Origin: a virus
Lineage: Duplodnaviria; Heunggongvirae; Uroviricota; Caudoviricetes
Strand: one strand, 5' to 3'
DNA length: 42,699 bases
Virus record (IMG/VR): IMGVR_UViG_2870490042_000003
Shown here: one piece after another, positions 1 to 28,867 of the stretch
Numbering within the stretch: the first letter of the stretch is position 1
Layout of the letters: each line of letters begins with the position of its first letter
Made by a program: the position numbers and the translations under genes
Notes under the pieces: model-generated
What the model was told of the DNA's origin: nothing
The model's database searches: none
Seen by the model: only the letters and a program-made list of their open reading frames with translations

Positions 1-327
1 TCATTTTTTCCAGAGGCGGTCGAACTCCGCCTTCGCAAAATAAGCGGAAGCCTGGCGAAGGATATCGTTACTGCGGCGCAGTTCACGATTTTCACGTTCC
101 AGCTCTTTCAGACGCTGACGTTCAGCGGTGGTGAGCCCTCCATCACCGCCCCCGGTATCCCGCTCATGCTGGCGAACCCAGACACGCAGAGTCTCCGGCG
201 TACAGCCAATCTTTGGAGCAATGGAACAAATTGTCGCCCATTGTGAGTCATATTCGCTCTGACTTTCCAGAACCATACGGACTGCCCGTTGACGGACTTC
301 GGGGGAAAAACGAGTATTTTTAGTCAT
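1..327 (-). CDS. IS629 transposase OrfA (HTH protein)
   Basis: 108-aa translation identical to the ORF at 1082-1408; IS3-family OrfA-like. Confidence 0.85.
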
Positions 328-5200: not shown

Positions 5201-5621
5201 CCTCACGGGCTGATGTGCTGGCATCGCTGGCTGACTTCTTCGCGGCTGCCGTGTTCTGTGCCACCGCGGACGCGTTACGCGCCACCTCTTCCACCATCAG
5301 TTCAAAACGGCGCAGTGCCTCAGGACGGGCATCATCCTCCGTCATGGCACCGAGAAAATCATTCAGCGTACCGGGTCGGGAATCTTCATACACGGTGATG
5401 GTCCCGGCATGTGACGGCGGGAATCCTTCCACCAACAGAATAACGCTGTACTGACCGTACTCAACGTCCATGCTGTAACGCCCGGCTTCATCCGGATTTT
5501 CTGAGGCCAGCGTGTTCACCACCACCGTGGTACTGTTACGTTTTGCTTTCAGCTGGATTGTGCAGTTCTGTACCGGTTTTCCTGTGCCGTCTTTCAGTAC
5601 ACCTGAAATCTTTACTGCCAT
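2298..5621 (-). CDS. stf: Side tail fibre protein (lambda Stf-like N-terminus, Ala/Ser-rich central repeats); 3' end interrupted by IS629, last 13 codons and stop are IS-derived
   Basis: ATG at 5621 (the track's M1 is GTG at 5627); N-terminus MAVKISGVLKDGTGKPVQNCTIQLKA matches lambda Stf from memory; the ORF runs 40 bp into the IS629 right end. Confidence 0.8.
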   Translation of the reverse strand: MAVKISGVLKDGTGKPVQNCTIQLKAKRNSTTVVVNTLASENPDEAGRYSMDVEYGQYSVILLVEGFPPSHAGTITVYEDSRPGTLNDFLGAMTEDDARPEALRRFELMVEEVARNASAVAQNTAAAKKSASDASTSAREAATRATDAAGSARAASTSAGQAASSAQSASSSAGTASTKATEASKSAAAAESSKSAAATSAGAAKTSEMNAAASQKSAATSASTATTKASEAATSARDASASKVAAKSSETSAASSAGSAASSATAAGNSAKAAKTSETNADNSAQAAADSQTASANSATAAKKSETNAKNSEAAAKVSETNAKASENKAKEYLDKVGGLVSPMTQYDWPVVTGNESFYIKIAKLSDPGSGNCHVTLMVTNAGNYGSPYGNIDFIEISARGLPSLLSADNVSRHLSIRRLGSTGLTDNNQMRYGLVKGDGFIEVWAFQRAFINGAKVAVLAQTARPELYIPDGFVKQTAAPSGYVESPVVRIYDQLNKPTKADLGLSNAMLTGAFGLGGSGISTNGKMSDVEILKALRDKGGHFWRGDKPTGSTATIYSHGSGIFSRCGDTWSAINIDYSTAKIKIYAGNDARLNNGTFSINELYGSANKPSKSDVGLGNVTNDAQVKKSGDVMSGDLDILKETPSIRLKSAKGTAHLWFMNNDGSERGVVWSPENNESLGEIHIRAKNTKGESSGDFIVRHDGRVEARNLKITYKISAATAEFANTSTSSDNTTVSIKGSQHTPLVLTSNNTIKNLSIGFKVDDVDQKYLGIAGDGDLYFGSYSDHTKNSKVITQAKLDSGVTVGGKTTFSDFATFNAGMAGSIEPETIDNKTIDLNDLIIANTVAGSVKYYQCKTVAGGAYITNKPDGVSGNFLLRVESTRKTTGSDYAIMQTLIGSDTKRIYVRFVVNGNWTEWSQVVVSGWNQDVTVRSLTSTTPSKLGGGRVDVLGSTSDYSSMNCAVRGVDSTGTNSAWSVGTSESTGKMLFLKNHRSSAQVLLNGDDGAVQLLSGTVNGATAQALTINKDEVNSTADLVIRKQTGTGNRFALLNSGNSELPVSIRVWGSSTRQNVFEVGTSAAYLFYAQKTTDGQNLTEPPRVSWRVFYL

Positions 5622-5630
5622 ATTCACCCC

Positions 5631-5659
5631 ACAAAAAAGCCCGCCTGAACCGGCGGGCT
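5631..5659 (-). terminator. Intrinsic terminator-like hairpin between lom and stf
   Basis: On the - strand AGCCCGCC-GGTTCA-GGCGGGCT followed by TTTTTT, then the stf SD and start. Confidence 0.5.
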
Positions 5660-5685
5660 GTCATAACACTGTGTTACCTGGCTAA

Positions 5686-6285
5686 TCAGAATTTATAACC
5701 GACACCCACGATGAAACCGTCAGTGCGCCAGTCGCCACTGCCGGAACCTTCATAAGCGACATCAACGGCCACGGATTCGGTCGGGTTAAACTGCACGCCA
5801 GCCCCCCACGCCAGAGACGTGTTGCTGTGGCGACCGTCATCACTTCCGGTCAGCACGTCGTGCGTTTTCCCCTTGTTGTCAGTTACGCGGAGATAATCCC
5901 CGGAGAAAGTCGACACACGGCTGTAAGCCATACCCGCCATCGCATACGCGCTGAACCATTCATTCACGCGCACAGACGGCCCCGCCATCACGCTGAACCA
6001 GCGGTTACGCACGGAATCTTCATGCCAGCGGGTATCGCTGTAATGCGTTTTTTGCTCATCTTTGGCATTGGCATAACTGAATGACGTCACCAGCCCCAGC
6101 GTGTCCGTAAATTCATAACGGTATTTCACGTTAATCCCGTTCAGATTATCGCTGCCGGGGACGTTCGTACGGGCATGAAGATACCCTGCGCTCAGTGTGG
6201 ACTGGTGTTCAGACGCCCATGCAGGCGTACCTGATACGGCCAGACAGATGGCTGCGGACAAAATAGCTGCATAAACTTTACGCAT
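5686..6285 (-). CDS. lom: Lom outer membrane protein (Ail/Lom family beta-barrel)
   Basis: 199 aa; N-terminal signal peptide; C-terminus ...YEGSGSGDWRTDGFIVGVGYKF as in lambda Lom. Confidence 0.85.
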   Translation of the reverse strand: MRKVYAAILSAAICLAVSGTPAWASEHQSTLSAGYLHARTNVPGSDNLNGINVKYRYEFTDTLGLVTSFSYANAKDEQKTHYSDTRWHEDSVRNRWFSVMAGPSVRVNEWFSAYAMAGMAYSRVSTFSGDYLRVTDNKGKTHDVLTGSDDGRHSNTSLAWGAGVQFNPTESVAVDVAYEGSGSGDWRTDGFIVGVGYKF

Positions 6286-6308
6286 AATTACCTCTCGCTT
6301 TTCTGCAA

Positions 6309-6334
6309 TAAAAAAGGCGCCATTTCTGGCGCCC
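6309..6334 (-). terminator. Intrinsic terminator-like hairpin between J and lom
   Basis: - strand GGCGCC-AGAAAT-GGCGCC followed by TTTTTT, then GAGAGG and the lom ATG. Confidence 0.5.
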
Positions 6335-6352
6335 GTATCTGGGTTATAAAAT

Positions 6353-9300
6353 TCAGCTAATCGTGATGCCTGCAGTGGCTTTCTTCATCACCACAACCAG
6401 CAAATCGCTGATACTGGCTGTGGGATACCAGTTATTTACCAGCCATGCTGACACCGAAAACTCCAGTGTCATGTGACCGTGACCGGCAGGCATATCAATA
6501 ACACCACTGTAAATCAGCGTATTATCCAGCGCGGTACGGTTATAAATTTCAGCACCGTTTTTCCGTACTATCAGGCGGCATGACGAATAAATATCGTTAT
6601 TCTCCCGCTCATGTTTAGCGCCGCTGAATGCCACCGCCGGAATAACAATCTGCCGGTCAAACGGCTGATCGTCATAAACCCTGACGGTGATGGTCCCTGA
6701 TGGCCACCGTTCCGGTGCACGGGAGTCCCGGGGGAAAGCTTTGCCCACTGTTTTAACGAGATCGCCTTCAATCTGGTTGGCGGACAGTTTTCCCAGAACC
6801 CGACAGTTCTCGTTAATCGTGACGTTGTTGAGCGTCCCGGCGTTCGCATTCACGTTACCGCTGATATCGGCATTTTTCGCCGTCAGCCGCCCGTCCGGTG
6901 TCAGGGAAAATACCGGAGGATTACCGCCGCTGGTAATGGTGGGAGCCGTCAGGCGTTTCAGGAACACTTCGTTCATGAATATCTGATCGCCCTGCCCAAC
7001 AAACATCGGCTTTGTGTTGCCATTCGCAGGATTAATCATCGCAATCCTGTCTGCCGCCAGCAGCACCTGACTCTGCATGCCGTCAGGGGTGTTCTCAATA
7101 CCGGCACCAATACCCGCGATATAAAGGCGTCCGTCCTGCATCTGCTGCAGCTTCACAGCCCACATGCTGTTCAGGTTATTATTTGTATCAACCTGAACCT
7201 TCTGTATCTGCTGAATTGCCGCACTCTGGTCTTCCAGTTTCTTATTGACGGTCTGCGTGATTTCATTGCTGACATCCGTAATGGACGTCCTGATTTCAGC
7301 CAGGTCAGGCGCAAGCTGACCGTTATCAATCTGCGTCCACAGCTCCTGAGCCAGATGGGTTTTCCCTATCTCGCCTTTGAAAAAATCCAGATAACCGGAT
7401 GCATCATCACTCGGCTGACCAACAGCCTCCACGAATGCCGATTTGCCAACGGTGTTCACACTGCGGATATAAAAGTAATAATCATGGCCCGGTTTGATAT
7501 TGATACTGGCGGCTATCCAGTACAGCGCCGTGCCAAGATAGCGTGCTGTGGTTTCAACCTGCCTGATATCGGTAATCCGCTTTTCCGAGAACCAGAACTC
7601 AAACTGTACCGTCGGATCATAAACCGCAAGATGCGGCGTGGCGGTTATCTGAAAATAGCCCGGCGTCAGCTCAATCCGCGACGGCGCTGCCGGTGCGGCA
7701 ATCCGGAACGATACCGACGCCGGATCGCCCTGCTGCCCCCACGCATTTACTGCCCGGACTGTCAGCCTGTAGTTCCCCAGCGCCAGTTGTGTGAAGCGGT
7801 AAGTGGTTTCCGTCGTCCGGGCCGTGCTGACCAGCCACTCACTGCCGTCATCCGCTGTTACGGTCAGACGGAGCAGGAAGCTCACGCCCTTCACCACCTT
7901 CGGCGTGTCCCAGCGCGCCAGCACCTGATATTCCCCGCTGTCTGCGGTGACTTCGGCAGTCAGGTGCTGCACCGCTGGCGGCGTGACACCATTCACCGTG
8001 CCGCTCTGGTCGCCGTCAAAGTGCGCCCCGTTATCCACGATGGCTTCTTTTTCCGGTACATGCTGCACGGCGGTGATGGCATACGTGCCGTCATCGTTCT
8101 CACGGATACTCACACAGCGGAACAGGCGCTGGCGCAGCGTCGGCAACTTCAGCCCCCACACGCTGTATTCTGCAACACCATCAGGAACCCGGCTCACTTT
8201 CACCTTCACGCCGTCGGTGACGGACTGGACCTCCACGCTGACCGGATTACCCTGACCGTCAACCAGGCTTATCAGCGTGGTACCGGAGGATGGCAGCGTG
8301 ATTTCACGGTCGAGCGTCAGCGTCCGGGTCTGGCTGTTCACCGCCAGCACGCGCCCGCCGGTGCTGATACCCGCATAGTCATCATCGCAGATTTCAATGA
8401 CATCCCCCGGTACATGGCGAAGCCCTTCCGCACCCACGCTGAAGTCCACGGTCTGCGTTTCCAGCAGTTCCGTTTTAATCAGCCACAGCCCGGCGCGGTG
8501 CGCCTGCCCCCGGCTGGTACAGCCAAAGGCATCCATCTTCGTGACGTTACGACCGTAACGGGCAATGGCCTGCGTATCTTCAACAAGCTCTGTCGCCGTC
8601 TCCCAGCCGTTGTCCGGGTCAATCCAGTTCACCTCAACGGCATTATGGCGGTCTTTCAGGGCGCTGAAGCTGTAGCGGAACGGCGCGCCATCATCCGGCA
8701 TCACCACATTACTGCGGTTATAGGTCCACACCTTATCTGATGGTCGGTCCTGCACGAACGTCAGCGTCTGCCCGTTCCATACCGGCATACAGCGCATCGC
8801 CGAGCAGAAATCACTGAGCACATCCCACGCCTTGCGCTGTGTGGTCAGGTACGCATTACAGGTGATGCGCGGCTCCGTGCCGCCAAAGCCGTCCGGCACC
8901 GACTGGTCGCAGTACTGGCCGATGACATACAGCGCCCATTTATCCACATCCGCCGCACCAAGACGTTTCCCCATGCCGTAGCGCGGATGGGTCAGCATAT
9001 CCCACAGACACCAGGCCATGTTGTTGCTGTATGCCGGTTTAAACGTTCCGTCCCAGATACCGCTGTATTGCCGCGTCTGCGGGTTATAGTTCGACGGCAC
9101 CTGCAGAATGCGCCCGCGCAGATGATAATTACGGCTCACCTGCTGGCTGCCGAACTGCTCCGAATCCACCTGTACGCCGACCAGTGCCGTGTTCGGGTAG
9201 CACTGTTTCACATCGATGATTTCGGTGTATGACGACCAGAGCGTTTTGTTCTGCAGCTGGTCTGTGGTGCTGTCCGGCGTCATCCTGCGCATCCGGATAT

Positions 9301-9832
9301 TAAACGGGCGCGGCGGCAGGTTATCCACCACCACCGAGGCCAGATACTGCGAGGTGGTTTTGCCCTTAATGGTGATGTCTTTTTCCGTCACCCAGCCACC
9401 ATTACGCTGTATCTGAACCAGCAGGCGAACTTCCGACGGATTCCGGTCCCCCTTTGAGGTGGTTTCCACCAGTGCCTGCACACCGAAGGTAAAGCGCAGA
9501 CGGTCGATGTTTGCAGACGTGATGGTGCGGGTGATCGGCGTGTCATATTTCACTTCCGTACCCAGCACCGTCTCGGAGCCGGAGGATTCAAACCCCTCCG
9601 GCGGTGTCTGCTCCTGCTCACCGGCACGGAACACCACCGTGACACCGGAGATGTTGGTATTCCCCTCAGTGTCCAGCACCGGCGTACTGTTCAGCAGCAC
9701 GCTTTTTAATCCATCCACCGGACCTTCAACCGGCCCTTCACTGATGGCGTCTATCACGCTCAGCATCTGGGATGATTTCAGGTTGTCCTTCGCTTCGCGC
9801 GGGGTATGCCCCTTACTGCTGCCTTTACCCAT
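6353..9832 (-). CDS. J: Tail tip / host specificity protein J
   Basis: 1159 aa; lambda J-like sequence throughout; ATG at 9832. Confidence 0.9.
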
Positions 9833-9850
9833 TCCTCACGCTCCAGAAAC

Positions 9851-9874
9851 GACAAAACCGCCCTGAGGCGGTTT
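9851..9874 (-). terminator. Terminator-like hairpin between I and J
   Basis: - strand AAACCGCC-TCAG-GGCGGTTT followed by TGTCGTTT and the J SD. Confidence 0.4.
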
Positions 9875-9892
9875 CACATAAAACGTTTTGCA

Positions 9893-10540
9893 TCAGCGAC
9901 CAATCACCACAACCTGACCACCGTCCCCTTCGTCTGCCGTGCTGATCTCCTGAGAAGCCACCCGCGACCCCACGCGCATTTCACCGTACAGAACGGGCAG
10001 AACATTGCCCTGGGCAACCATGTTATCCAGTGAGGAGAAATAGGTGTTCTGCTTACCGTTATCCGTTGTCTGTGTACGGGGAGTTCTGGCTTTCGGTGCC
10101 AGCATCTGCGCCACACCGCCAAGGATCATACTGGCCCCCGCAGCATACATGCCCGATACAGCCGCAGCTCCCAGCCAGCCCACAGGGTTCCACCACGCCA
10201 CTGCAATCAGCGCCGCACCCAGCACCGCCTGAAACACACCGCCACTTTTTGCTCCCGCAAGACGCGGAACGATGTGGATCACGGCACCATTTTTCAGCGG
10301 CTCATTAAGACGGGCTGATAATTCGTTTTCGCCTGCATCACGCCCGGCAATGCGCACCTGATACCAGCCATCGCTCAGTTTCTGACGAAACGCCGGGATC
10401 TGCATGGCCAGCGCCCGGATGGCTTCGGCCCCCGTTTTCACACGAAGGTCGATGCGGCGGCCAAATCGTTGCAAATCCCCGTAAAGGCAGATACGTGCCA
10501 TGCCCGGTGACGCCAGAGGGAGTGTGTGCGTCGCTGCCAT
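9893..10540 (-). CDS. I: Tail assembly protein I
   Basis: 215 aa beginning MAATHTLPLASPGMARICLYGDLQRFGRR, lambda I-like; overlaps K by 103 bp. Confidence 0.85.
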   Translation of the reverse strand: MAATHTLPLASPGMARICLYGDLQRFGRRIDLRVKTGAEAIRALAMQIPAFRQKLSDGWYQVRIAGRDAGENELSARLNEPLKNGAVIHIVPRLAGAKSGGVFQAVLGAALIAVAWWNPVGWLGAAAVSGMYAAGASMILGGVAQMLAPKARTPRTQTTDNGKQNTYFSSLDNMVAQGNVLPVLYGEMRVGSRVASQEISTADEGDGGQVVVIGR

Positions 10541-11181
10541 TTGTCGGTGTACCTCTCTCGTTTGCTCAGTTGTTCAGGAATATGGTGCAGCAGCTCGCCG
10601 TCGCCGCAGTAAATTGCGGCGTGATTCGGCACCGATGAACCAAAACAGCACAGCAGCACATCGCCCGGCTGTGCCGCTGACAACGGCACCTGATACAGCC
10701 CCGTCGCCTCCAGATTATCCAGATAGAGATTCTGGCCGTTACGCCACCAGTCATCCTCACGATGAAAATCAGGCATCTCAATTCCCGCCAGATGGTAAGC
10801 ATCCCGGAGCAGCGTGTAACAGTCCGTCACCCCGTGCTCAAAGCGCCGCCCGGTAAGATGCGGCACACAGCGGAACTTGTGAATCGCCCCCCGGCAGACC
10901 AGCCACCACGGCAAATCACTCTGCACCTGCAGCCGCCGGTCGGCCTCACTCAGCCAGGGCAGACCACCGGGGTGGCTGTGGACCAGCGCCACAATCTCAC
11001 CCTGCATTTCTGCCTGCAGCCAGTCTTCCGGCGACATACGGAAATACGCCTCCGGCTCACCGGAGATATTCACGCAGGGAAAATATCTTTCCCCCTCCGG
11101 CGTGCTTACCACGAAGCCGCACGACTCCGCTGGCGCACATCGCCGGGCGTGCGCCAGAATCGCTGATTCTGTCTGTGTCAT
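10438..11181 (-). CDS. K: Tail assembly protein K (JAB/MPN-type plus NlpC/P60-type domains)
   Basis: 247 aa from ATG at 11181; HSHPGG...SEAD JAMM-like motif; the internal Met at residue 49 would give a 199-aa form. Confidence 0.8.
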   Translation of the reverse strand: MTQTESAILAHARRCAPAESCGFVVSTPEGERYFPCVNISGEPEAYFRMSPEDWLQAEMQGEIVALVHSHPGGLPWLSEADRRLQVQSDLPWWLVCRGAIHKFRCVPHLTGRRFEHGVTDCYTLLRDAYHLAGIEMPDFHREDDWWRNGQNLYLDNLEATGLYQVPLSAAQPGDVLLCCFGSSVPNHAAIYCGDGELLHHIPEQLSKRERYTDKWQRRTHSLWRHRAWHVSAFTGICNDLAAASTFV

Positions 11182-11186
11182 GGGAT

Positions 11187-11885
11187 TTACTGCGAAAGTT
11201 TGTTAATGGAAAGGAAGCCGCCAAAGTTGCCGACGTTATTGCGGAACTTACAACCGCTCAGGCATTTGCTGCATTTATCCTTCGTGATATCGGACGTTGG
11301 CTGGTCATATTCATCCGCGACAGCCGGACCGCTATAACCGCACTCGTCACCGCGATAGGTCCAGGTGCAGGTGTTGGCCAGCATGATACGTCCCGGAAAA
11401 ACAGCGCCATCCGTTTCCGTCGGCGTGGACAGTACAAAGGAGGCACTCACCGCGCTCAGTTCGCTGCACTGCTCAATGCGCCAGCGGCTGATCACCTCCT
11501 GCTCCGGATCGGCGTAACTGTTTCCGTTGACGAAGTTCACCGCATCCAGAAAACGGGCGTAAACCTTACGCCGGACCACCGTTCCGCCGACCAGACTCTG
11601 CATATCTTCCGCCATCCCGGTGACCATGCCGTACAGATTAGAGACTTTAAGCGTTGGCCTTGCACTGGCTCCTTTGCCGTTCATCTCAAATCCGCTTCCC
11701 TGAATGGGATAAGCCTGATACTGCCGCCCCTGCCAGGTGACTGGTTCACCTTTTTCGTTCTGCTCATTACAGAAGAAATAACGATCTCCGCCGACCTCTG
11801 TCAGATCAATTTCCCAGAGCACGACCAGCGCGGATTGCTCCGTTTTAGTGCACTCATTGAGTGTTTCCTGCTGTATATCCTGCAT
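11187..11885 (-). CDS. L: Minor tail protein L
   Basis: 232 aa; lambda L-like; ATG at 11885. Confidence 0.85.
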   Translation of the reverse strand: MQDIQQETLNECTKTEQSALVVLWEIDLTEVGGDRYFFCNEQNEKGEPVTWQGRQYQAYPIQGSGFEMNGKGASARPTLKVSNLYGMVTGMAEDMQSLVGGTVVRRKVYARFLDAVNFVNGNSYADPEQEVISRWRIEQCSELSAVSASFVLSTPTETDGAVFPGRIMLANTCTWTYRGDECGYSGPAVADEYDQPTSDITKDKCSKCLSGCKFRNNVGNFGGFLSINKLSQ

Positions 11886-12226
11886 CAGTGAGTGACCTCT
11901 TCAAAGGTACAGTTAAAATCGGTATACATGGCATTATCCGAAATGCTCCACTCCCTGCAGACAACCCGGACAGTCCTGTTGTGTTTTGGCGGACGCCACA
12001 AAAAAGCACGAATCCCGGCATGACGGGATAAAAAACTGTCCAGCGCGGCACGGGAATATTCATCTGTGACACGAAATACCGGTTTAAACGTTTTCAGATC
12101 CGCATTCAGACCACCAGCCCGTCGCTGTTCATATCCGTCACCAAACTTTACCGTAATAACTGATGGCTTTCGTGTCGTCTCCATCCCCTCACGGGGGATC
12201 CAGTTAAAAACTTCAGGCTCAGGCAC
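11885..12226 (-). CDS. M: Minor tail protein M
   Basis: Lambda M-like (…VKFGDGYEQRRAGGLNADLKT…); start placed at GTG 12226, which has GGAGGA 7 nt upstream and overlaps the H stop by 8 nt; the start is uncertain (ATG alternatives at 12241 and 12184). Confidence 0.65.
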   Translation of the reverse strand: MPEPEVFNWIPREGMETTRKPSVITVKFGDGYEQRRAGGLNADLKTFKPVFRVTDEYSRAALDSFLSRHAGIRAFLWRPPKHNRTVRVVCREWSISDNAMYTDFNCTFEEVTH

Positions 12227-15200
12227 TGTACAATCCTCCATCCCGACGCGATGACTGCATAATTGACACAACCCTGCTGTCGATCAGATCCACCAGTCCC
12301 CTGGCTGAGCGCGCATCTATCTCGCCATTGCTCCCTTGATTCTGAATGCTGATGTGATACACGGGAGAATAAACAAATCCACCGCCACCATTCACATCTC
12401 CAATGGCCCTGACCCCAAGAGAGCCGTCCGCTGCCCGTGTCAGTGGCATGATTGCTTCAGGCCCGGCCTCGCCCATCAACCCGGCCCCCTTCGCAAAAGC
12501 AAAATACGTCGGTGTATCCACAATAGTGTTACTGTAAGCACTCAGATTTGCCGATGTGTAAACACCACCTTTTGCGTTTGCCACTGCCCCCGAAATCCAT
12601 CCGCCGACCGTACCAAGCCACCCTCCGGCACCGGAGAGTGATTTCAGTCCGTTAACAATGGCTGCATTCATCAGAATTTTTGAAACTTCCCGGAGAACTG
12701 AACTCCCCCAGTTCCTCCAGTCCACAACATTTCCGGCCAGTGCATCGGAAATATTTGATACCAGCCCGTCCATAGTGGAAACGACAGCATCTGCCGCCTG
12801 CGAAGCATAATCGGTGGCACTGTCTGCCCAGTTGGTCAGCCCCTCCTGGAGTCCTGCATTCCAGTTATTACGTAAAGCATCGGCCTTTGCATAATAATCC
12901 TGCTGATCGCTGAGACGCTCTTCCAGATATTTTTTATTCAGTTCTTTCTCCTGTTTCCACAGGGCTTCTTCAATTTCTCCGGCCTGATACTGTCTCAGCA
13001 GCTCGTTATTTTTCTGCTCAAACTCATGCCGGATACTCCACATTTCCTGGAGTCGTTCACGCATCCGTGAGCCTTCACCATATCCCAGTAACTGCGCGTC
13101 GTTAGACGCCCGGGTACTGGCATTACTGTCCGCCAGGCTGCTTTCATACGCAGCAAGCTGCTCACGAATCTTTTTCTGGTCGATGAGTGCTGCATTCTGC
13201 AAAAGCGTTTTTTTCTGCGCTTCTGACAGGGTTGATAATTCGCCCTGACTGACCTGATATTTCATCTTAGCCAGTTCAGTATTCTGCCCTGCCAGTGCTA
13301 TCTGTTCTTTTTGCTGTTTAATCAGCCGTTTATAAATATCTTCTGTTTTTTCCGCTTCGGTCTTTTTATGCGCTTTGGGTTTATTTGCCTGGTTATTTCG
13401 CCAGGCATCCAGTGAGTTATTGATATAATTCTGTCTGGCTGTCTGATACGCCTCTCCCACAAAGCCAAGATCATCCGCAGCATAGCCCAGTCGAGCACGC
13501 TCACGCGCTTCCCCCTTAAGGCGGGACAGAGCCAGTTCGCGCTTGCTGTTATTCAGTGCGGTCTGCTGTTTATCATCCAGGGTTGCCTGTGGTAGCCGTA
13601 ACGGTACATTCACCAACCCCTGTCGCTGCTGAAGTAATTCATTACCAAGCCCAAGAAGGCGATTAAACTCGGTATGCTGCCCATTCATGATCAACAGGGA
13701 CTGATACGCTTTGTTTTGTTCCGCCGCCTGTTGACGGATCAACGCAACCCGCCGCTCCTCCAGCCCGGCAAGCACATCCTGAATGGATTGCGCTTTGCCC
13801 TGCATTTGTGTGAGACGGGACTGTTCAACTGCCAGTTGATTTGTTGCTTCTGCAAGCCCTTCTGTGACTGTTTTTACCGACGTCATGTGGTTAATCATAA
13901 AACCGTTATCGGTTGTCCAGCCCGGGTTTGCCAGCACATACTGATAGCCAGCAATTTTTTCCTGTAAGGATTTAATCTTACTTTTCTGCTCGTCAATTAA
14001 CCTGTTTTGCTCATCAAGTGCCTGCCGCGTCTTTTCCTCATTATCTGACGCTTCAGGAAGCGACATTGCCGACGTTTTCTGGCGAATTTCGTCGATTGTT
14101 GCGGCATACTGGCGTGCAGATTCTCTGGCCTGCTCCTGATTCTGATACATCGTGTACCAGGCCGTCGCCCCCAGCATGACGAGTCCCGGCACACCACCAA
14201 CCAGCCCCAGCGCACCACTTAACAGACGACTCCCCACTGACGTGACAGTATTCAGCGTTGTCTGCGCCGCTGTTCTGGCCGCAATATTACGGGTAAGTGA
14301 CGCCTGAGCAGCTGTCAGCTTCGCTTCTGCTGCGGCCTGCCTTTCGGTACCGCGAGCAGCAACAACCGCCTGTTGCGCACGATAAACCGCCGCACGCGCT
14401 CTGGCGGTTGCTATCTGTGTCCCCCGAAGTTGCGCTTCAGCAAGAGCCACTTCGTTTCTGGCTGCAGTAATTAATCCGGCAGTTGCAGATCCAGCAGACG
14501 ACGCCATATTGCCAAAATATCGGGCTACCCCGACGGCAACCAGTGCGCCAGCTGCAGCAGCCACGGTATCAATATTGTCTGCAACACCATTCAGCACACC
14601 GGAGAGTGTCTTTGTCACTCCGCTTGCCTCGTTCGCACCACCAACCCAGGCCATAAAGGCGTTTTCAACTTTGGTTGCAGAGGATGAAACAGTATCAGGC
14701 ATTGCTGCATATTCATCACGCAACGCCCCAAGCTGACTAATCAGTGCAGGAACAACCTTATCGGCGGTCAGTTTTCCGTTATCCGCCATGGCCTTCAGAT
14801 CCTTACGGGCAACCCCCATTCCCGCAGCCAGCGCACGAATAACACGATCGCCGTTCTCATTCACCGAGTTAAACTCTTCACCGCGCAGCACTCCCTGCGC
14901 CAGTGCCTGACTGAACTGCATGATCACCGAACTGGCTTCTGCTGTACTGGCACCGGATAATTTCAGGCCCGTGGAGATCGCCTCGGTGACTTTCAGTACC
15001 TCCTCAGAACTGTAACCATACTCCCGCATGGAAGCTGCAGAACGGGCAAAAAGGCTGGCGTTATCAGAAAACGCCGTCCCCGTTCTCTGGCTGATCGCCA
15101 TTAATTCACGCTGTGATGCCTGAAAATCATCACTGGACTGTGAGGCCTGCTTCAGACGGGCATTTACTGAATTCCACTCATCGGCGAGAGAAATAAGATG

Positions 15201-15452
15201 ACCGGTAGCAAAAGCCCCGGCAAATGCCCCCGCCATATTCAGTGCCGAAGATTTAGCTGTATTTATCTGATCCGTCACTTCTGCCAGTGCACGCCGCATT
15301 TCACGGGAGGCAGCAGCAGACTGTTGGCCTCCGTTCTGCATGGTGCGGTAGTAATCCTGCCCCATACGCGAAGCCCGGGAGATCTCTGACTGGAATGACC
15401 GGGAGTTTGCCGAGATTTTAATAATCAGTTCACGTAATGTCGCCACACTCAT
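12219..15452 (-). CDS. H: Tail tape measure protein H
   Basis: 1077 aa, long coiled-coil-rich protein at the tape-measure position between GT and M; start ATG 15452 or GTG 15446. Confidence 0.85.
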   Translation of the reverse strand: MSVATLRELIIKISANSRSFQSEISRASRMGQDYYRTMQNGGQQSAAASREMRRALAEVTDQINTAKSSALNMAGAFAGAFATGHLISLADEWNSVNARLKQASQSSDDFQASQRELMAISQRTGTAFSDNASLFARSAASMREYGYSSEEVLKVTEAISTGLKLSGASTAEASSVIMQFSQALAQGVLRGEEFNSVNENGDRVIRALAAGMGVARKDLKAMADNGKLTADKVVPALISQLGALRDEYAAMPDTVSSSATKVENAFMAWVGGANEASGVTKTLSGVLNGVADNIDTVAAAAGALVAVGVARYFGNMASSAGSATAGLITAARNEVALAEAQLRGTQIATARARAAVYRAQQAVVAARGTERQAAAEAKLTAAQASLTRNIAARTAAQTTLNTVTSVGSRLLSGALGLVGGVPGLVMLGATAWYTMYQNQEQARESARQYAATIDEIRQKTSAMSLPEASDNEEKTRQALDEQNRLIDEQKSKIKSLQEKIAGYQYVLANPGWTTDNGFMINHMTSVKTVTEGLAEATNQLAVEQSRLTQMQGKAQSIQDVLAGLEERRVALIRQQAAEQNKAYQSLLIMNGQHTEFNRLLGLGNELLQQRQGLVNVPLRLPQATLDDKQQTALNNSKRELALSRLKGEARERARLGYAADDLGFVGEAYQTARQNYINNSLDAWRNNQANKPKAHKKTEAEKTEDIYKRLIKQQKEQIALAGQNTELAKMKYQVSQGELSTLSEAQKKTLLQNAALIDQKKIREQLAAYESSLADSNASTRASNDAQLLGYGEGSRMRERLQEMWSIRHEFEQKNNELLRQYQAGEIEEALWKQEKELNKKYLEERLSDQQDYYAKADALRNNWNAGLQEGLTNWADSATDYASQAADAVVSTMDGLVSNISDALAGNVVDWRNWGSSVLREVSKILMNAAIVNGLKSLSGAGGWLGTVGGWISGAVANAKGGVYTSANLSAYSNTIVDTPTYFAFAKGAGLMGEAGPEAIMPLTRAADGSLGVRAIGDVNGGGGFVYSPVYHISIQNQGSNGEIDARSARGLVDLIDSRVVSIMQSSRRDGGLYSA

Positions 15453-15462
15453 TCTCCGGACG

Positions 15463-15484
15463 AAAAAAAACCGCCGAAGCGGTT
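15463..15484 (-). terminator. Intrinsic terminator-like hairpin between T and H
   Basis: - strand ACCGC-TTCG-GCGGT followed by TTTTTTTT, then GGAGA and the H start. Confidence 0.5.
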
Positions 15485-15492
15485 ATGTTGAC

Positions 15493-16181
15493 TCACTGAG
15501 ACACTATTAAAAGCGCGTTTTCCAGTCCGGCAAATGGATCTGAAGCGCCTTCTGTCTGCTCCTTCTCCCACTGAAGAAGCGCATCATTCAGTGACACTTT
15601 GACCCCCTGCGCACCGTAAATAGCTGAAACAATCTGGGCAGCCCGGAAATCAGCCCGTTCGTCCCCCAGCGGGCTGAACCTGTCAAATTCTGCCCACATC
15701 ATGATTTCTGATGCGGACATTTCCCGGCGTAACTCTGACAATGTGCGCCCCATCCTGAGCGCCAGCATCATCAGAAAACGCATCCCCGGAAGCGCTACTT
15801 TTTTTTAACCTCGCCGGCATCACTGATCAGTTCCAGAGACTGCCGAAGAAGCCGCGCATGCACCGGGCCATACACGGCAATCACCTGTTCACGATCATCC
15901 TCTGAAAATACGGGTTGCAGTCCGGTATCACACAGAACATCAATGAACAGTTCAACATCTGCCTCCAGATTTCGGCGGGCGCGCTCCGCAACGGATAACG
16001 GTGTCTCATCATCTTTTGCTTTAACGATCTCCTGCCAGCGCAACCAGGCTTCTGCAGAAGGTTCCCGTAACACAACCGTTGCTCCCTCCCATTCAGGCAC
16101 ATCAACGGTTTTATGGCGAAACCCCGACATCGTTGCCAGTGCCAGATTACGGATATTTTTAGTCATCACATCCATCCTCAT
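15493..16181 (-). CDS. GT: Tail assembly chaperone GT, fusion made by a programmed -1 ribosomal frameshift
   Basis: The G frame ends GEVKKK-stop at 15795; the -1 frame is open from 15804 to the stop at 15493; slippery heptamer A AAA AAG at 15804-15798; same arrangement as lambda G/GT. Confidence 0.7.
15795..16181 (-). CDS. G: Tail assembly chaperone G
   Basis: 128-aa ORF immediately downstream of V; the real start may be the ATG at 16166 (MTKNIRN..., AGGA upstream). Confidence 0.75.
   Translation of the reverse strand: MRMDVMTKNIRNLALATMSGFRHKTVDVPEWEGATVVLREPSAEAWLRWQEIVKAKDDETPLSVAERARRNLEADVELFIDVLCDTGLQPVFSEDDREQVIAVYGPVHARLLRQSLELISDAGEVKKK
15798..15804 (-). other. -1 programmed frameshift slippery site A_AAA_AAG (G to GT)
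   Basis: The heptamer lies in the G zero frame 2 codons before the G stop; the downstream -1 frame is open for about 100 codons. Confidence 0.65.
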
Positions 16182-16885
16182 TAACTGACGGTTACAGTGC
16201 AGGAAGTGGAGGTCACTTTGTTAACCGGGCTCGCTGAATCAGAAATCTCGCAGGTATACGCACCGGCATCACCGGATGCTGCTGATGCCTTACTGAACGT
16301 TGCCGCCGTCTGTCCGGAAACAGGAGAACCACCTTTTTTCCAGGCATAAGAATAAGGCGGCACACCACCCACAGCCTCAACCGCCATTTCAAGTTTCGCT
16401 CCGGAAGCAACCCGCAGCGTGCTTTTTAAATCGACCTTCACTTTCAGCTGCTCTGTCGTCAGCACAGGCTTACCTTTCAGGCGCAGAGAAAACGTTGCAG
16501 CCACAACACCATTGGTTCCTGCAGACCAGGTATGCTGACGCACCTCTGCCATAAAGGTAAATCCGTTGCCTGACGGAAAAATAACTTTAAAGCCATACGT
16601 GGTGTCATTGTCATAGGCACTGCGCAACGCGTTCTGGGCAGCATTCAGATAAAAGTTGCCTGACATGGAAATCTCTGAAGCAGCCCCAAGACCGTTAATA
16701 TTTTCCTGCTCAACAGAATACAGCGTGGTGACATCAATATCCTGCTTTTGTCCTGCGGTAAACTGCACCTCTTTGATTGTACAGCTCAGGCCAAGATAGC
16801 TGGCAGAATCCAGGGTTTCTGCTGTTACCGGTGCAGACGAAATCATAATTTTCGTCAGTTGCGAACGCTCAAAATTAGAGGACAT
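16181..16885 (-). CDS. V: Major tail protein V with a C-terminal Ig-like domain
   Basis: 234 aa; position and lambda V-like sequence; ATG at 16885 with AGGAGA SD. Confidence 0.85.
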   Translation of the reverse strand: MSSNFERSQLTKIMISSAPVTAETLDSASYLGLSCTIKEVQFTAGQKQDIDVTTLYSVEQENINGLGAASEISMSGNFYLNAAQNALRSAYDNDTTYGFKVIFPSGNGFTFMAEVRQHTWSAGTNGVVAATFSLRLKGKPVLTTEQLKVKVDLKSTLRVASGAKLEMAVEAVGGVPPYSYAWKKGGSPVSGQTAATFSKASAASGDAGAYTCEISDSASPVNKVTSTSCTVTVS

Positions 16886-16902
16886 ACTCGTCTCCTGAAA
16901 AT

Positions 16903-16924
16903 AAAAAAACCCGCCAGCGGCGGG
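16903..16924 (-). terminator. Intrinsic terminator-like hairpin immediately upstream of V
   Basis: - strand CCCGCC-GCT-GGCGGG followed by TTTTTTT, then AGGAGA and the V ATG. Confidence 0.5.
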
Positions 16925-16945
16925 TGGGTAAAATCATTAATGACC

Positions 16946-17290
16946 TCAGGCTATTACCTGGAATTCAAGCGTGGCTCTGCTCAGACGGGAGTCAGGATCA
17001 TAACCCTGCGTTTTAGAAATAACGGAGGGTGCCAGTTTTCTTACCGCATCAAGCGCCTGCTCACGAATATTATCTGCGTCATCAGGTACTGTCGCCCAGA
17101 CATCGATCTGCACGGTAATTCTGGATTCAGCCTGCCCATCAAGCACATCAGATACCGTGTCAGACACCACAGAAAACACCAGCCACGGCGGAGATACTGC
17201 AGGCTTTCCCTCCGTCAGCGGGACCACATAAGGATAAACCTGTCCTCCGGCCAGCTGAGACAACAGGGAATACAGTGTGCCCTCCCTCAT
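16946..17290 (-). CDS. Tail terminator / tail completion protein (U-like position)
   Basis: 114 aa; ATGA overlap with the upstream gene; position between head-tail joining genes and V. Confidence 0.6.
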   Translation of the reverse strand: MREGTLYSLLSQLAGGQVYPYVVPLTEGKPAVSPPWLVFSVVSDTVSDVLDGQAESRITVQIDVWATVPDDADNIREQALDAVRKLAPSVISKTQGYDPDSRLSRATLEFQVIA

Positions 17291-17733
17291 TTACTTAAGA
17301 CCTCATCAATAGCCTGATTCATTCGCTGTATGGCAACCTGCGCCGCCAGCTCCTCTGTCGTATCGAAAGCCGGGCGAATGAATGGATGCGCGGGCATGTT
17401 TATCGTTCCCAGCTCCACAAAGCGCCAGTAAAATGCATTTCGGGGATCGCTGGCTTTCATGCTGTTATCACTGTTTCCGGTTCGCAGGTTCCGTCCGCGA
17501 ATGTGGACACCCGAGATAATTTCCCCCCGACGCTTTGAACGCTGAGTGAGAACAACCACATTTTTCTTCAGTTTCCCGGTTCGCTCCGGCGCACGTTCAA
17601 CAACTGCATCCCGCATAACTTCAGCACCGGCACGGGTGGCATCGCGCAGAACCTTATTGTTTTCTGCCCTGCTGAGCGTCTCCAAATCCCGTGCAATATC
17701 CGCCAGGCCGGAAAAATCAAGACTGAAATCCAT
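17287..17733 (-). CDS. Tail-component protein, HK97 gp10-like
   Basis: 148 aa from ATG 17733 (the track's M1 is GTG); conserved position in HK97-type head-tail joining modules. Confidence 0.6.
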   Translation of the reverse strand: MDFSLDFSGLADIARDLETLSRAENNKVLRDATRAGAEVMRDAVVERAPERTGKLKKNVVVLTQRSKRRGEIISGVHIRGRNLRTGNSDNSMKASDPRNAFYWRFVELGTINMPAHPFIRPAFDTTEELAAQVAIQRMNQAIDEVLSK

Positions 17734-18071
17734 CACACATTCCCCTTCAGGCTGCAGAGTATTTCAAGCCGGGTAGCGCGTGCATCCGGTATTGGTGGAC
17801 CTTCTATACCCAGAATGGCCCCTTTAAATGCACCGGTCAGCACTTTCAGACGTGAAGTCGCTGTCACATCGCGCCGGAATCTCATCCAGACTCTGACCGT
17901 AGCCTGAGCGGTTTCTGCTCCGCCTGAGATTATCTCCCTCCCGCTGATACCCTTAACTTCTGCCCATACGGTAGCTCCCTCCGTCACCGTCTCCACCGGA
18001 TGCCCTGACGGAGAGCGGGCGGTGGTGACATTCAGAATAATTACGCGATCACGTAATCTGCCCGCCTGCAT
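17733..18071 (-). CDS. Head-tail adaptor / head closure protein
   Basis: 112 aa; position after the connector in an HK97-type module. Confidence 0.6.
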   Translation of the reverse strand: MQAGRLRDRVIILNVTTARSPSGHPVETVTEGATVWAEVKGISGREIISGGAETAQATVRVWMRFRRDVTATSRLKVLTGAFKGAILGIEGPPIPDARATRLEILCSLKGNV

Positions 18072-18079
18072 GTCTCCTC

Positions 18080-18397
18080 CTACAAAGGAATAAAACGATA
18101 AGGCTCCAGCAGAGAAGAAAAACCAAACGGGACTGGTGCCTTACTGACATCTGAGGAATTTTCCCGGTTTTCGCACCAGTGCCCGACCAGCAACATGAGC
18201 GCCAGCAAAACATCATCAGCTATAAGCACCCCTTCAGGATCACCTTCCGGCACCGTCTCCTCATAAAGCTTACGGTTGATAAAATTTTCTGCCTTGCGGC
18301 AGGCAGCCCGGAAATACAGCATCAGTAACTCATCATCAGTTGCATCATCTGTATCAATACGGCACTGCGCCCTGAGTTTTTCCACTATTGCTGCCAT
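18080..18397 (-). CDS. Head-tail connector protein (HK97 gp6-like)
   Basis: Start placed at ATG 18397 (AGGAG 7 nt upstream); the track's longer ORF begins at a TTG inside the capsid gene. Confidence 0.6.
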   Translation of the reverse strand: MAAIVEKLRAQCRIDTDDATDDELLMLYFRAACRKAENFINRKLYEETVPEGDPEGVLIADDVLLALMLLVGHWCENRENSSDVSKAPVPFGFSSLLEPYRFIPL

Positions 18398-18430
18398 CAG
18401 AAACTCCTGCCCGCAACACTGTGCGGGCAT

Positions 18431-18452
18431 AAAAAAACCGCGTCGGCGCGGT
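18431..18452 (-). terminator. Intrinsic terminator directly after the major capsid gene
   Basis: - strand ACCGCG-CCGA-CGCGGT followed by TTTTTTT. Confidence 0.55.
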
Positions 18453-18473
18453 CTGTAACTGAACAACGAGTGG

Positions 18474-19691
18474 TTATTTGCCAGTGAGCGCCTTGATGGC
18501 TGCCACATCTTCCAGCACACAGTCAAAACGATGGAAAGCCAGAAATGCCACCTGATCAAACTCAGCATAACGCTCAACCAGACGTTTCAGTTCCATATAA
18601 GTAACGCGGCGAATGATAAAGCGGTTGAAATCCCCCAGGAAAATGAATTTTTTTCCAGTACCAATCCCGTCAATAGCCTGATCAATAACATAAGGGATCC
18701 CCAGCACAGTAGCCGGCGTACCGCCTGCAATATCCGGCAGCCATAACGGGCGTTTCTGTCCATCCTCCATCTCTTCAATAGTCTGCAATGTGGCATCATT
18801 GAATGCCCAGCGGTATTTCGGCCCACCACGATATGCCGGATCAATGGCATGTTTCAGGGCATTCATTTCTTTCCAGGTGAAAGCGGCAGAGGCTGCAGTC
18901 TGGATGGTTCCCGTCACCGACGCTGCCAGCCCTTTTGGCTGTAACGGTGATCCCGTTCCGGTCCCCTGAACCAGATATTTTGCCTCTCCACGACCAATAC
19001 GCTGGGCAATACGGTTTGCCAGATAAGATTCAATATCCACCCCACTGTCCTGGAGCAGCTCATTGGACACACGAATTATTTTTGATGACAGCTTTTTAGC
19101 CCCCAGAATAGCGGTCCCGAACGTCACATCCTGTTCCGTTGCGGCTGTATTTTCCGCCAGCAGTTCGCCCTCTTCAGTCGTGCCATCAGACGTTGACCAG
19201 GTGATATCCTGCCCGGTTGATGTGGTCAGAAGTTGCGCCACACTGGCAATCCCGCCATAAGCCTTCATGGTGTCAATGATTTTGTTACGCATCTGCGTGG
19301 GCACCGTATATCCGCCCTGAGAATCCGTTGTTACACTCTGAGCCCGCAGTTCACGCATCAGATTACGCTCTTCAGCATTCAGTTCTGCAAATCCGGCACG
19401 CAGAAAACGGTTAAATGCCGCAGCACGCTTCTCTTCCACCGCCTTTTTCCCGTTCTCCGCCTCATTATTCTGGCGCTCTTCCGGCCCGGACTCATCCACA
19501 TATGCCTGATCCTGACGGCGCAACTCTTCTTCACGGGCGATTTGCTCATCCAGCGCATCCAGCTCAGCTTTCGCCCTGTTCCACTCTGCCCGTTGCTCAT
19601 CAGTCCATGCGTTATCACCAATTTTTTCATGCAGTGCACGCATATCCTTTGCAATGGTGTTTCGTTTTTGCTTCATCTCATGAAGTTTCAT
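18474..19691 (-). CDS. Major capsid protein, HK97 family, with N-terminal delta/scaffold domain
   Basis: 405 aa; coiled-coil N-terminal region then HK97-like fold sequence; ATG at 19691. Confidence 0.9.
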   Translation of the reverse strand: MKLHEMKQKRNTIAKDMRALHEKIGDNAWTDEQRAEWNRAKAELDALDEQIAREEELRRQDQAYVDESGPEERQNNEAENGKKAVEEKRAAAFNRFLRAGFAELNAEERNLMRELRAQSVTTDSQGGYTVPTQMRNKIIDTMKAYGGIASVAQLLTTSTGQDITWSTSDGTTEEGELLAENTAATEQDVTFGTAILGAKKLSSKIIRVSNELLQDSGVDIESYLANRIAQRIGRGEAKYLVQGTGTGSPLQPKGLAASVTGTIQTAASAAFTWKEMNALKHAIDPAYRGGPKYRWAFNDATLQTIEEMEDGQKRPLWLPDIAGGTPATVLGIPYVIDQAIDGIGTGKKFIFLGDFNRFIIRRVTYMELKRLVERYAEFDQVAFLAFHRFDCVLEDVAAIKALTGK

Positions 19692-24058: not shown

Positions 24059-24409
24059 TCAATTGAGGCGTTCGCGCGCTGTTTTTGCTTTATGACAGGG
24101 CCAGCACAGACTCTGCAGGTTACTGTCTGCATCCGTGCCACCATGAGCTTTCGGAATGATGTGGTCCACAGTTCTGGCTTCAACGGCTCTCCCATTGCGC
24201 AGGCAGTTCTGACACAGATGATTATCACGCTTCAGTATGCGCGCACGTATGGCATCCCATTTCGAGCCATAGCCACGCTGGTGGCGGCTCAGTCCGCGTT
24301 GATGCTGTACCCATCCTTCGCCACGATGTTTATCGCAGTAACCAGAACTGTCTGTGGTTGTACCTGCACATCCACGCTTACGGCAGGCGCGTGGGATTCG
24401 TGGGGGCAT
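24059..24409 (-). CDS. HNH endonuclease (terminase-associated)
   Basis: C-terminal HNH motif …DHIIPKAHGGTDADSNLQSLCWPCHKAK…; start placed at ATG 24409 (GGAG SD); the track's M1 is GTG. Confidence 0.85.
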   Translation of the reverse strand: MPPRIPRACRKRGCAGTTTDSSGYCDKHRGEGWVQHQRGLSRHQRGYGSKWDAIRARILKRDNHLCQNCLRNGRAVEARTVDHIIPKAHGGTDADSNLQSLCWPCHKAKTARERLN

Positions 24410-24519
24410 ATGTACTCCAATGAAGAAGCCACCGACATAGCCTCCTCCATTCATAGTGAAACTATTTTCATCTACCCAGTAATGAATTCTTTGTAGAGTT
24501 GTGATCAATACAACTCACT

Positions 24520-26885: not shown

Positions 26886-27192
26886 ACCCCGTCTCCCGTT
26901 ATCCGGAAGCTGACAACAATAAAAAAGCCACCAGTTAACTACTGATGGCTCTGATAACTCATGCAAGCGTCTCAGACGATCCACTGACACTACCGGTGAG
27001 TTTAACGATACCTTCCATTTGACTGGCTCACTTTTTATGATGATGCCGGTGTATTTATCTCCAGCACCAGACTTTCTATCTCAACGCCATACGTTGCATT
27101 TTTGGTAATATCCGTCAGCGTCAGTGCATTTAGTCCCACTGCCAGACCGTCTTTTATGGTCTGGAATGCCGGGCCAGTACGATGACGTAGTA

Positions 27193-27381
27193 TCACTCCG
27201 GCTCAGTTGCACCACTGACCACCACATCACCTTCTGCTGCAATCGCCTGCATCAGGGTATAAGGGGTTATGGCCACCGGACTACCAAACGGCTGCCAGCC
27301 CTCTTTCAGTTTATGTGTCAGCTTTTCCGCAAGATCTGACGGCGGCGCCGCCCTGACAACATCATAGTGTTTAAATGCCAT
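27193..27381 (-). CDS. Small conserved lambdoid-phage protein upstream of the holin
   Basis: 62 aa from ATG 27381 (MAFKHYDVVRAAPPSDLAEKL…); position between the Q/tRNA region and the holin. Confidence 0.5.
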   Translation of the reverse strand: MAFKHYDVVRAAPPSDLAEKLTHKLKEGWQPFGSPVAITPYTLMQAIAAEGDVVVSGATEPE

Positions 27382-27641
27382 GGTTCTTTCCACCATCTGA
27401 AAAATAATTCTTTAAAATACCAGACATGTAACACAGAAAAAACACAAAACCATACCTTAAATAGAAACCTGATCATCAAGCAGATATGCATGGATAAACT
27501 ACAAGACGAGATATAAACCACCCTGCATTTAAATAAACAATAAACAACATCAGAAAAATAATTCTGCTCTATGGTTTATATTCAAAAATATCATTTATAC
27601 TTTTCAGAACATCACCAGCAAGGCATAAACAAGGAAGCTAA

Positions 27642-27977
27642 ATGAAGTGGATTGTAATTGATACAGTTATCCAGCCATCATGCGGAATATCTTTTTCAGT
27701 CATATGGAGTAAAGTAAAATTAATAATCTGGTATCAATCGGATGCTTTCTTACCTCCTGAAAGTATATTTACACTGACTCACACAGGTATCATGCTCAAT
27801 AACAAAGTGCTACCTGTAACCATTTACAACGTAGTACCATTCAATAAAACATTCTGGAATTTAATCAAAAACAGCCAGGAATGCCCTACAAATACAGATA
27901 ACGTATTGAATGAATGCTTTAATAACCGTTGCATTCTGCAAATATGTCCTTATGGACTAAAACAACAAAGTCCATAA
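27642..27977 (+). CDS. Hypothetical protein (111 aa) in an AT-rich cargo island, convergent with late transcription
   Basis: ATG 27642 with AAGGAAG SD 4 nt upstream; surrounding 27.40-28.00 kb is markedly AT-rich; no family recognised. Confidence 0.45.
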
Positions 27978-28012
27978 GGAGTTTACTCACATCTGACAAA
28001 ATCAATATAAAC

Positions 28013-28685: not shown

Positions 28686-28867
28686 GTGAGGTATTTAAAA
28701 ATTTCAACGGGTAACTGATACCCTGCTAATCGCCTGATGCTTTCTTTTTCAGCAACGGGAAAGCAACAACCACACACCCGCCACCAAAACACCATCAGAC
28801 AGCACCGACATTATCCGGCTGCTGAAGTCCACCATCACCACCAGAAACAACAGGAGTGCAACCACAG

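Follow-up and report, generated by a model that had tools for sequence, protein, structure and literature searches.

The stretch of DNA analysed here (42,699 nucleotides (nt) from a virus of the class Caudoviricetes; IMG/VR record IMGVR_UViG_2870490042_000003) is referred to below as the window. Its minus strand carries a late morphogenetic operon in which six GC-rich hairpins, each followed by a T-run, occupy the gaps after the major capsid gene, upstream of V, between T and H, between I and J, between J and lom, and between lom and stf. All six had been pointed out by a first-pass annotation made from the letters alone, and all were found in place. They are probably intrinsic (Rho-independent) terminator-type signals, predicted here at the junctions of an operon controlled by the late antiterminator Q.

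Hairpins in the gaps of the late operon

The window is an Escherichia coli lambdoid prophage, and over the region searched (bases 5500–18600) it has 100% identity with an induced E. coli prophage, Escherichia phage vB_EcoS-640R1 (ON470612.1). Gene identities, assigned from the ON470612.1 annotation together with Pfam scans, give the minus-strand order Q, holin, DUF1327, lysozyme, HNH, TerS, TerL, portal, prohead protease and major capsid protein (MCP), followed by the Ad1 adaptor, Hc1, a gp10-like protein, the tail completion protein, V, G, T, H, M, L, K, I, J, Lom and Stf. The names given to genes in the first-pass annotation (an HK97-type MCP, V, G/T, H, I, J, Lom and Stf) were right. The hairpins and the genes that border them are listed in the direction of transcription, with folding free energies (ΔG) in kcal/mol and stems in base pairs (bp).

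18474–19691, minus strand: HK97-fold MCP gene
18428–18454, minus strand: post-capsid hairpin (MCP/adaptor), stem 18454–18435 of 7–8 bp, 4-nt loop, 7 U, tail TTTTTAT, ΔG −10 to −10.6
18409–18428, minus strand: second hairpin, GCCCGCA-CAGTGT-TGCGGGC, without a U-tract, flanked by the post-capsid hairpin and the Ad1 AGGAG
18080–18397, minus strand: Ad1 adaptor gene, ATG at 18397
16946–17290, minus strand: tail completion protein gene
16902–16925, minus strand: pre-V hairpin (tail completion/V), stem 16925–16909 of 7 bp, 3-nt loop, 7 U, sequence ACCCGCC-GCT-GGCGGGT + TTTTTTATTTT, ΔG −12.0
16181–16885, minus strand: major tail protein gene V
15493–15783, minus strand: tail chaperone gene T
15461–15484, minus strand: T/H hairpin, stem 15484–15469 of 6 bp, UUCG loop, 8 U, sequence AACCGC-TTCG-GCGGTT + TTTTTT, ΔG −8.0
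12219–15452, minus strand: tape-measure gene H
9893–10540, minus strand: gene I
9851–9875, minus strand: I/J hairpin, stem 9872–9857 of 6 bp, extendable by AAA/UUU, sequence ACCGCC-TCAG-GGCGGT + TTTGTCGTTT, with a short, interrupted U-tract UUUUGUCGUUUCU, ΔG −10.4
6353–9832, minus strand: gene J
6309–6334, minus strand: J/lom hairpin, stem 6334–6315 of 8 bp, GAAA loop, U-run 6314–6309, sequence GGGCGCCA-GAAA-TGGCGCCT + TTTTTATT, ΔG −15.1
5686–6285, minus strand: lom, an Ail/Lom outer-membrane protein gene (PF06316, E = 3.5e-125)
5632–5659, minus strand: lom/stf hairpin, stem 5659–5638 of 8 bp, 6-nt loop, U-run 5637–5632, sequence AGCCCGCC-GGTTCA-GGCGGGCT + TTTTTG, ΔG −17.6
2298–5621/5627, minus strand: Stf gene

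The six hairpins, all in intergenic gaps and on the operon's coding strand, are of similar build, with stems of 6–8 bp, loops of 3–6 nt, 4–7 G–C pairs and energies of −8.0 to −17.6 kcal/mol. Each begins 19–45 nt past the upstream stop codon (19 nt after that of the MCP gene, 27 nt after that of lom). A U-tract of 6–8 U stands directly 3′ of the stem at five sites and is weak at I/J. At six sites out of six the T-run ends 5–20 nt before the GGAG-type Shine–Dalgarno sequence of the next gene, approximately 5 nt before that of stf, and the V Shine–Dalgarno sequence is placed 14 nt past the pre-V stem; the claim that each element sits just before the next ribosome-binding site is thus borne out. 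The T/H element is contained in a 40-nt gap between the chaperone T and tape-measure genes.

Weak folding had been named in the first-pass annotation as grounds for rejecting the sites. When the lambda genome was run through the strict scanner described below, hairpins of −8.5 to −16.0 kcal/mol were returned at the positions of known terminators, which we take from the lambda map to be tR2, t-oop, tL1, tL3 and t-imm; the energies in the window are within the range of these and are therefore not weak. A consensus terminator scan reported five of the six sites, with I/J absent from its list because the T-run is short. No Rfam family matched at any of the six. A reading of the elements as members of a REP-like or other repeat family was dropped, the stems having in common only a generic CCGCC/GGCGG composition.

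Placement was assessed over positions 2298–23911, the 21.6-kb morphogenetic operon, with a strict scanner (perfect stem of at least 5 bp, ΔG of −7.5 kcal/mol or lower, T-tail score of at least 3.2), used instead of an earlier permissive one that gave many long irregular intragenic hairpins and did not discriminate. The strict scan returned seven matches on the minus strand and none on the plus strand, compared with 0.3 ± 0.5 matches (maximum 2) in 40 dinucleotide-preserving shuffles. Six of these seven fall within the 393 intergenic nt that make up 1.8% of the region, and every intergenic gap of at least 40 nt (6 of 6) is occupied by a strict match. The same strand bias holds for the whole 42.7-kb window, with 14 matches on the minus strand and 0 on the plus strand. 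The seventh match in the operon (19742–19729, minus strand; GGCGC-GTGA-GCGCC + TTTTGACC; −9.2 kcal/mol) is located within the prohead protease gene at its 3′ end, approximately 40 nt before the start of the capsid gene, and may be due to chance because 0.3 matches are expected per region. With this match and five more hairpins between Q and holin, the earlier count of ‘at least six’ was an underestimate.

The six might in principle be inverted repeats that arose by chance and have no function. Weak matches are indeed common, a permissive consensus scan having returned 28 sites where 18.5 ± 4.6 were expected in 20 kb. At the strict threshold, however, the excess is large, confined to one strand and concentrated in the gaps, and the positions are conserved; a chance origin, to which we assign a negligible probability, is refuted by the strict scan and by the covariation at the pre-V and J/lom sites set out below.

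Conservation of pairing and position

Sets of close relatives were drawn from 160 IMG/VR contigs, which proved too similar for covariation at three sites; for J/lom, I/J and lom/stf, 80 IMG/VR loci with the K gene were used. The diverged set comprised 41 prophage loci from other Enterobacterales genera, one genome per species, with the gp10-like protein 55–81% identical. The three head-proximal sites (T/H, pre-V and post-capsid) are nearly invariant among 80 close relatives; conservation was seen across 80 close relatives for the T/H hairpin and across 45 for the post-capsid hairpin.

The pre-V element is the best conserved. The gap that holds it measures 43–63 nt in all diverged loci bar one, which has an insertion of 831 nt, and the scanner found a hairpin with T-run there in 39 of 40 loci, inspection by eye in all 40, the stems being of five or more different sequences. 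In the corresponding alignment (A1), pairing holds in 95.4% of cells, and both sides of the stem have changed in 25 cells; the covariation score of 0.328 compares with 0.171 ± 0.02 in shuffles, none of 500 reaching it, and with 0.19 or less when the register is slid. Conservation reaches 90% or more at five consecutive T but not in the remainder of the gap, and the distance from hairpin to Shine–Dalgarno sequence is kept at 12–16 nt.

A second case of covariation is provided by J/lom, whose stem occurs as GCGCC/GGCGC, GCGTC/GACGC and GCACC/GGTGC. Across the 21 variants of alignment A2, 98.2% of cells are paired and two pairs show compensatory changes in 12 cells; this was matched by 0 of 500 shuffles, and the slid controls gave 0. 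Variation at the remaining two tip-proximal sites lends weak support to kept pairing: among 74 related loci the I/J stem is invariant and its loop variable, and the lom/stf hairpin, found in 41 related loci as 15 variants, has changed mostly in the loop or in ways compatible with G–U pairs. The compensatory substitutions and the 95–98% pairing in these alignments show that the structure of the hairpins is under ongoing selection.

At the other two junctions it is the position that persists. In the diverged set, 22 of 35 loci have a hairpin with T-run directly ahead of H, the stems differing, and a hairpin follows the MCP-like open reading frame in most diverged loci that have a gap there, with or without a U-tract. 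Both positions are filled by different stems in different loci. The tandem second hairpin beside the post-capsid element is likewise kept through compensatory stem changes, seen in three diverged loci (L167, L187 and L201).

Several points weigh against reading the six elements as terminators. A full-text literature search found no 3′-end mapping or termination assay for the window sites or for their lambda and HK97 homologues. The energy of the T/H hairpin (−8.0 kcal/mol) is marginal, and the I/J element, with just four consecutive U past the last G–C pair and then GUCGUUU, has the weakest tail and is the weakest candidate. Because the U-tract before V is 5–8 nt from the Shine–Dalgarno sequence, it could alternatively be a U-rich translational enhancer. 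The post-capsid hairpin is without a credible U-tract in approximately one-third (about 8–12 of 32) of the distinct diverged sequences, and at this site something besides termination is also selected.

These sequences without a U-tract bring in a candidate alternative that we regard as possible and yet on the unlikely side, namely that the elements work at the RNA level, instead of or besides terminating transcription. They would act as barriers to 3′ exonucleases that stabilize messages such as that of the capsid, or as structural insulators and standby sites that prevent the ribosome-binding site of the following gene (as at V and Ad1) from being closed off, so that expression would be tuned post-transcriptionally. 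The second hairpin, which abuts the Ad1 Shine–Dalgarno sequence, has no U-tract and is kept by compensatory changes, fits such a role, as does the constant spacing before V; moreover, a Q-modified polymerase should ignore terminators in lytic growth, in which case RNA-level effects alone can matter. A pure stabilizer would, however, have no use for the 6–8 U right after the stem at five of the six window sites, nor for the pre-V U-tract, which is present in 40 of 40 loci with its five T columns conserved. An RNA-level role is in any case compatible with terminator function and does not exclude it. A more specific version is doubtful. In it, the pre-V and post-capsid hairpins would primarily be mRNA elements that govern how much is made of the two most abundant virion proteins, whether by protecting the 3′ end once the transcript is processed, by structural insulation or through a standby site for ribosomes, and termination would be secondary or ancestral.

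The first-pass annotation had suggested that the terminators set stoichiometry, capsid above connector. For this the sites would have to leak even in late transcription, so that mRNA levels step down along the operon and fix the ratios of the products. The polarity is correct at the site that follows the major capsid gene and at those ahead of H and J, which are low-copy genes, and partial termination is among the roles considered in a paper on phage L. The best-conserved site nevertheless lies directly upstream of V, the gene for the most abundant tail protein, and downstream of the low-copy tail-completion gene, which is the wrong polarity. In lambda virions, V is abundant and the tail completion protein is present in low copy number. 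Sites in HK97 flank the major tail gene on both sides, and Q-modified polymerase is processively resistant to terminators. The many relatives that keep the post-capsid hairpin without its U-tract are a further difficulty, as partial termination cannot explain them and an RNA-level role such as 3′-end protection is indicated instead. The suggestion therefore fits the site after the capsid gene and fails before V, and as a general account it is quite improbable.

Q, the late leader and related systems

A Q-family gene is present upstream of the whole late operon, where the early-right operon ends, and is co-oriented with it. Upstream of Q are the nin-type genes RusA and DUF968; downstream, and on the strand of Q, follow the genes for holin, lysozyme, terminase, head and tail. 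Between Q and holin lies a leader rich in terminator-like hairpins.

29230–30051, minus strand: Q-family late antiterminator gene (PF03589, E = 1.2e-54)
26924–29149, minus strand: late-operon leader with five terminator-like hairpins, a tRNA-Met and two STnc100 copies
29149–29130, 28495–28476, 28282–28263, 28033–28012 and 26952–26924, minus strand: the five leader hairpins
29011–29086: leader tRNA-Met
28467–28660 and 28003–28191: copies of STnc100, a small RNA (sRNA) family of Rfam, each ending in one of the leader hairpins

A candidate late promoter, TTGATT-16-TAAATT (8/12), was picked out by eye at 29224–29197, ahead of the hairpin at 29149–29130; the promoter scan does not list it. The leader resembles the PR′-proximal region of sRNAs and morons described for prophages of enterohaemorrhagic E. 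coli (EHEC). The possibility that the six late hairpins are 3′ ends of Hfq-binding prophage sRNAs was rejected, since a paper on EHEC anti-sRNAs places those beside PR′ and not in the tail operon.

In lambdoid phages, dependence on Q is set at tR′, beside the late promoter, and internal terminators are tolerated thanks to Q. For this reason the six internal sites do not by themselves imply, as the first-pass annotation had put it, that late transcription depends on Q-modified, terminator-resistant polymerase. What stands of that claim is the Q-family gene upstream and the terminator-rich leader, which fit the established model. Q proteins have been described as processive antiterminators that bypass intrinsic terminators for late gene expression.

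By analogy with established lambdoid biology, the six elements would terminate transcription in the absence of Q and be read through in its presence. In the repressed prophage, polymerase lacking the Q modification, whether from read-in, from spurious promoters or from accessory morons such as lom, would be released at the next hairpin; the virion genes would then stay silent and accessory transcripts would gain a defined 3′ end. On induction, Q would load onto polymerase at the late promoter and carry it through all of the approximately twelve sites that begin in the leader and extend to stf. The hairpins would remain in the resulting mRNA as stable local structures and may shield upstream segments from 3′ exonucleases.

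Features of this kind are already known: the HK97 record annotates them, lambda has them, and they have been noted in P22-like phages. The HK97 record (NC_002167) gives ‘putative terminator’ features downstream of the portal gene, downstream of the major head gene (gp5) and between the tail-terminator and major-tail genes, and further ones after the major-tail gene, after the moron gene 15 just before H, before I and before J. Four of these junctions are occupied in the window as well, one that follows the major head gene and three that precede the major tail gene, H and J, and in both cases a co-oriented hairpin with its T-run stands a short way ahead of the ribosome-binding site of the following gene. 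Stems and loops at equivalent junctions have different sequences. Additional sites in HK97 lie downstream of the portal gene and of the major tail gene and upstream of I; HK97 also carries moron 15 at T/H and lacks lom. For HK97, Juhala et al. 2000 is reportedly the paper cited. Conservation of position with differing sequences between HK97 and the window argues for function.

In lambda, co-oriented hairpins are found in the D/E, E/FI, I/J, J/lom and lom/stf gaps, at which the lambda RefSeq record has no terminator features. Its I/J (15465–15480) and lom/stf (19612–19633) elements have nearly the sequences of the window; unlike the window, lambda lacks a gap both between T and H and upstream of V, and its J/lom hairpin is of a different, weaker sequence. 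The lambda tR′/Q region is matched by the Q-family gene followed by the terminator-like hairpin at 29149–29130 and a long co-oriented operon. The six sites themselves differ from tR′ in being internal and far from the Q-loading site, and they are not the regulatory switch.

A further parallel comes from the paper on phage L, in which a Rho-independent terminator was predicted at the end of the procapsid module, within a late operon that has a single promoter and is controlled by antitermination. Terminators inside the late operon are, according to that paper, common in P22-like phages and not unique, with roles that are unknown; beside partial termination, the authors suggested that they stop spurious transcription begun without antitermination. 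Phage L differs from the window in being a podovirus with unrelated morphogenetic genes and in having one such site as opposed to six or more.

lom and the mosaic operon

The two strongest hairpins of the set flank lom, the strongest being downstream. Lom has 46% identity with lambda Lom, and the 3′ flank of the gene, hairpin included, is almost identical to that of lambda; HK97 gave no match to Lom, although J and stf are there. In reviews, a moron is defined as a cassette with its own promoter and terminator, an example being gene 15 of HK97, flanked by the chaperone and tape-measure genes, and lom is counted among the genes expressed from the lambda prophage. The window resembles these cassettes in that the accessory gene lom is followed by a strong terminator-like hairpin, and lom is present or absent among syntenic relatives, as is expected of a moron. 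It differs from them in that no promoter belonging to lom was identified and that the other four hairpins are not tied to accessory genes. The promoter scan found no promoter-like site near lom on the minus strand, and a lenient sigma-70 search of 6286–6520 found no good promoter, its single 8/12 match (6472–6445) lying upstream of the J/lom hairpin; after that hairpin there is no space for one, as the U-run ends 24 nt before the ATG at 6285. A non-consensus or activator-dependent promoter may nevertheless serve the gene. A deviant GC content, another hallmark of morons, is absent (0.55, compared with 0.568 for J and 0.50 for stf). The idea that the terminators insulate lom for expression in the lysogen thus agrees with the downstream hairpin, which suits a moron terminator, and is at odds with the upstream one, which leaves no room for a promoter and has no good sigma-70 promoter within the 230 nt before lom.

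Judged by protein similarity, the operon is a mosaic: its head module is new, its neck and tube resemble those of HK97, and its tip resembles that of lambda. Identity to HK97 is 51–80% for proteins of the neck and tube, and identity to lambda is 79–96% for L, K, I and J. The portal protein has 28% identity with that of HK97, and the MCP gave no match to HK97 at E = 1e-5; both belong to an HK97-fold lineage other than that of HK97 itself. Insertions of 430–1121 nt occur at the T/H junction in at least 13 of 35 diverged prophages (L164–L204), usually still ending in a hairpin before H, and the junction appears from these to be a recurrent cargo site. The equivalent of this junction in the window (15453–15492) is the spot taken in HK97 by moron gene 15.

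Such a history raises the alternative that the hairpins are evolutionary leftovers, either 3′ ends of moron cassettes or recombination joints between modules, which have persisted because they are harmless under Q. The T/H insertions, the moron and terminator at that junction in HK97, the mosaic make-up, and a lom whose 3′ flank is near-identical to that of lambda while its product is only 46% identical and is missing from HK97, are all in keeping with it. Neutral persistence would not, on the other hand, yield compensatory substitutions and such complete pairing, which indicate ongoing selection, and the pre-V hairpin is found in 39–40 of 40 loci with a single insertion; we consider the leftover account improbable. 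Terminator-type signals at the junctions of a Q-controlled operon remain the preferred reading.

Several other features of the window were recorded. The HNH endonuclease gene, directly upstream of the small terminase gene, forms with it the usual HNH–terminase pair of HK97-like packaging modules. An IS3-family element (HTH_Tnp_1 and rve domains) adjoins the stf stop codon at 2298 and has probably displaced the 3′ end of stf and the tail-fibre assembly gene; record ON470612 stops exactly at this IS3/stf boundary.

24059–24508, minus strand: HNH endonuclease gene
1–2297: IS3-family element, open reading frames 1082–1408 and 1405–2295 on the plus strand
1363–1479: ALIL frameshift pseudoknot within the IS3-family element
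1–327, minus strand: start of a second, inverted IS3-family copy
32085–32260, minus strand: sok antitoxin RNA (hok/sok-type locus; Rfam), in the prophage early region
36220–36858, plus strand: cI-like S24 repressor gene, in the early-left arm
38144–38195, plus strand: DicF sRNA (Rfam), in the prophage early region
38840–41281, plus strand: gene for an exonuclease VIII/RecE-like protein of 813 amino acids with a C-terminal Rv2179c-like exoribonuclease domain
41581–42699, plus strand: lambda-type integrase gene, reaching the window end

As a discovery the hairpins carry little weight, those of the HK97 late operon having been annotated a quarter of a century ago, and such elements are to be expected wherever a processive antiterminator drives an operon. 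The pre-V and post-capsid hairpins are the best sites at which to separate termination from RNA-stability or translational roles. In marking the junctions of modules and the points of moron insertion, the sites are useful for the annotation and engineering of prophages.

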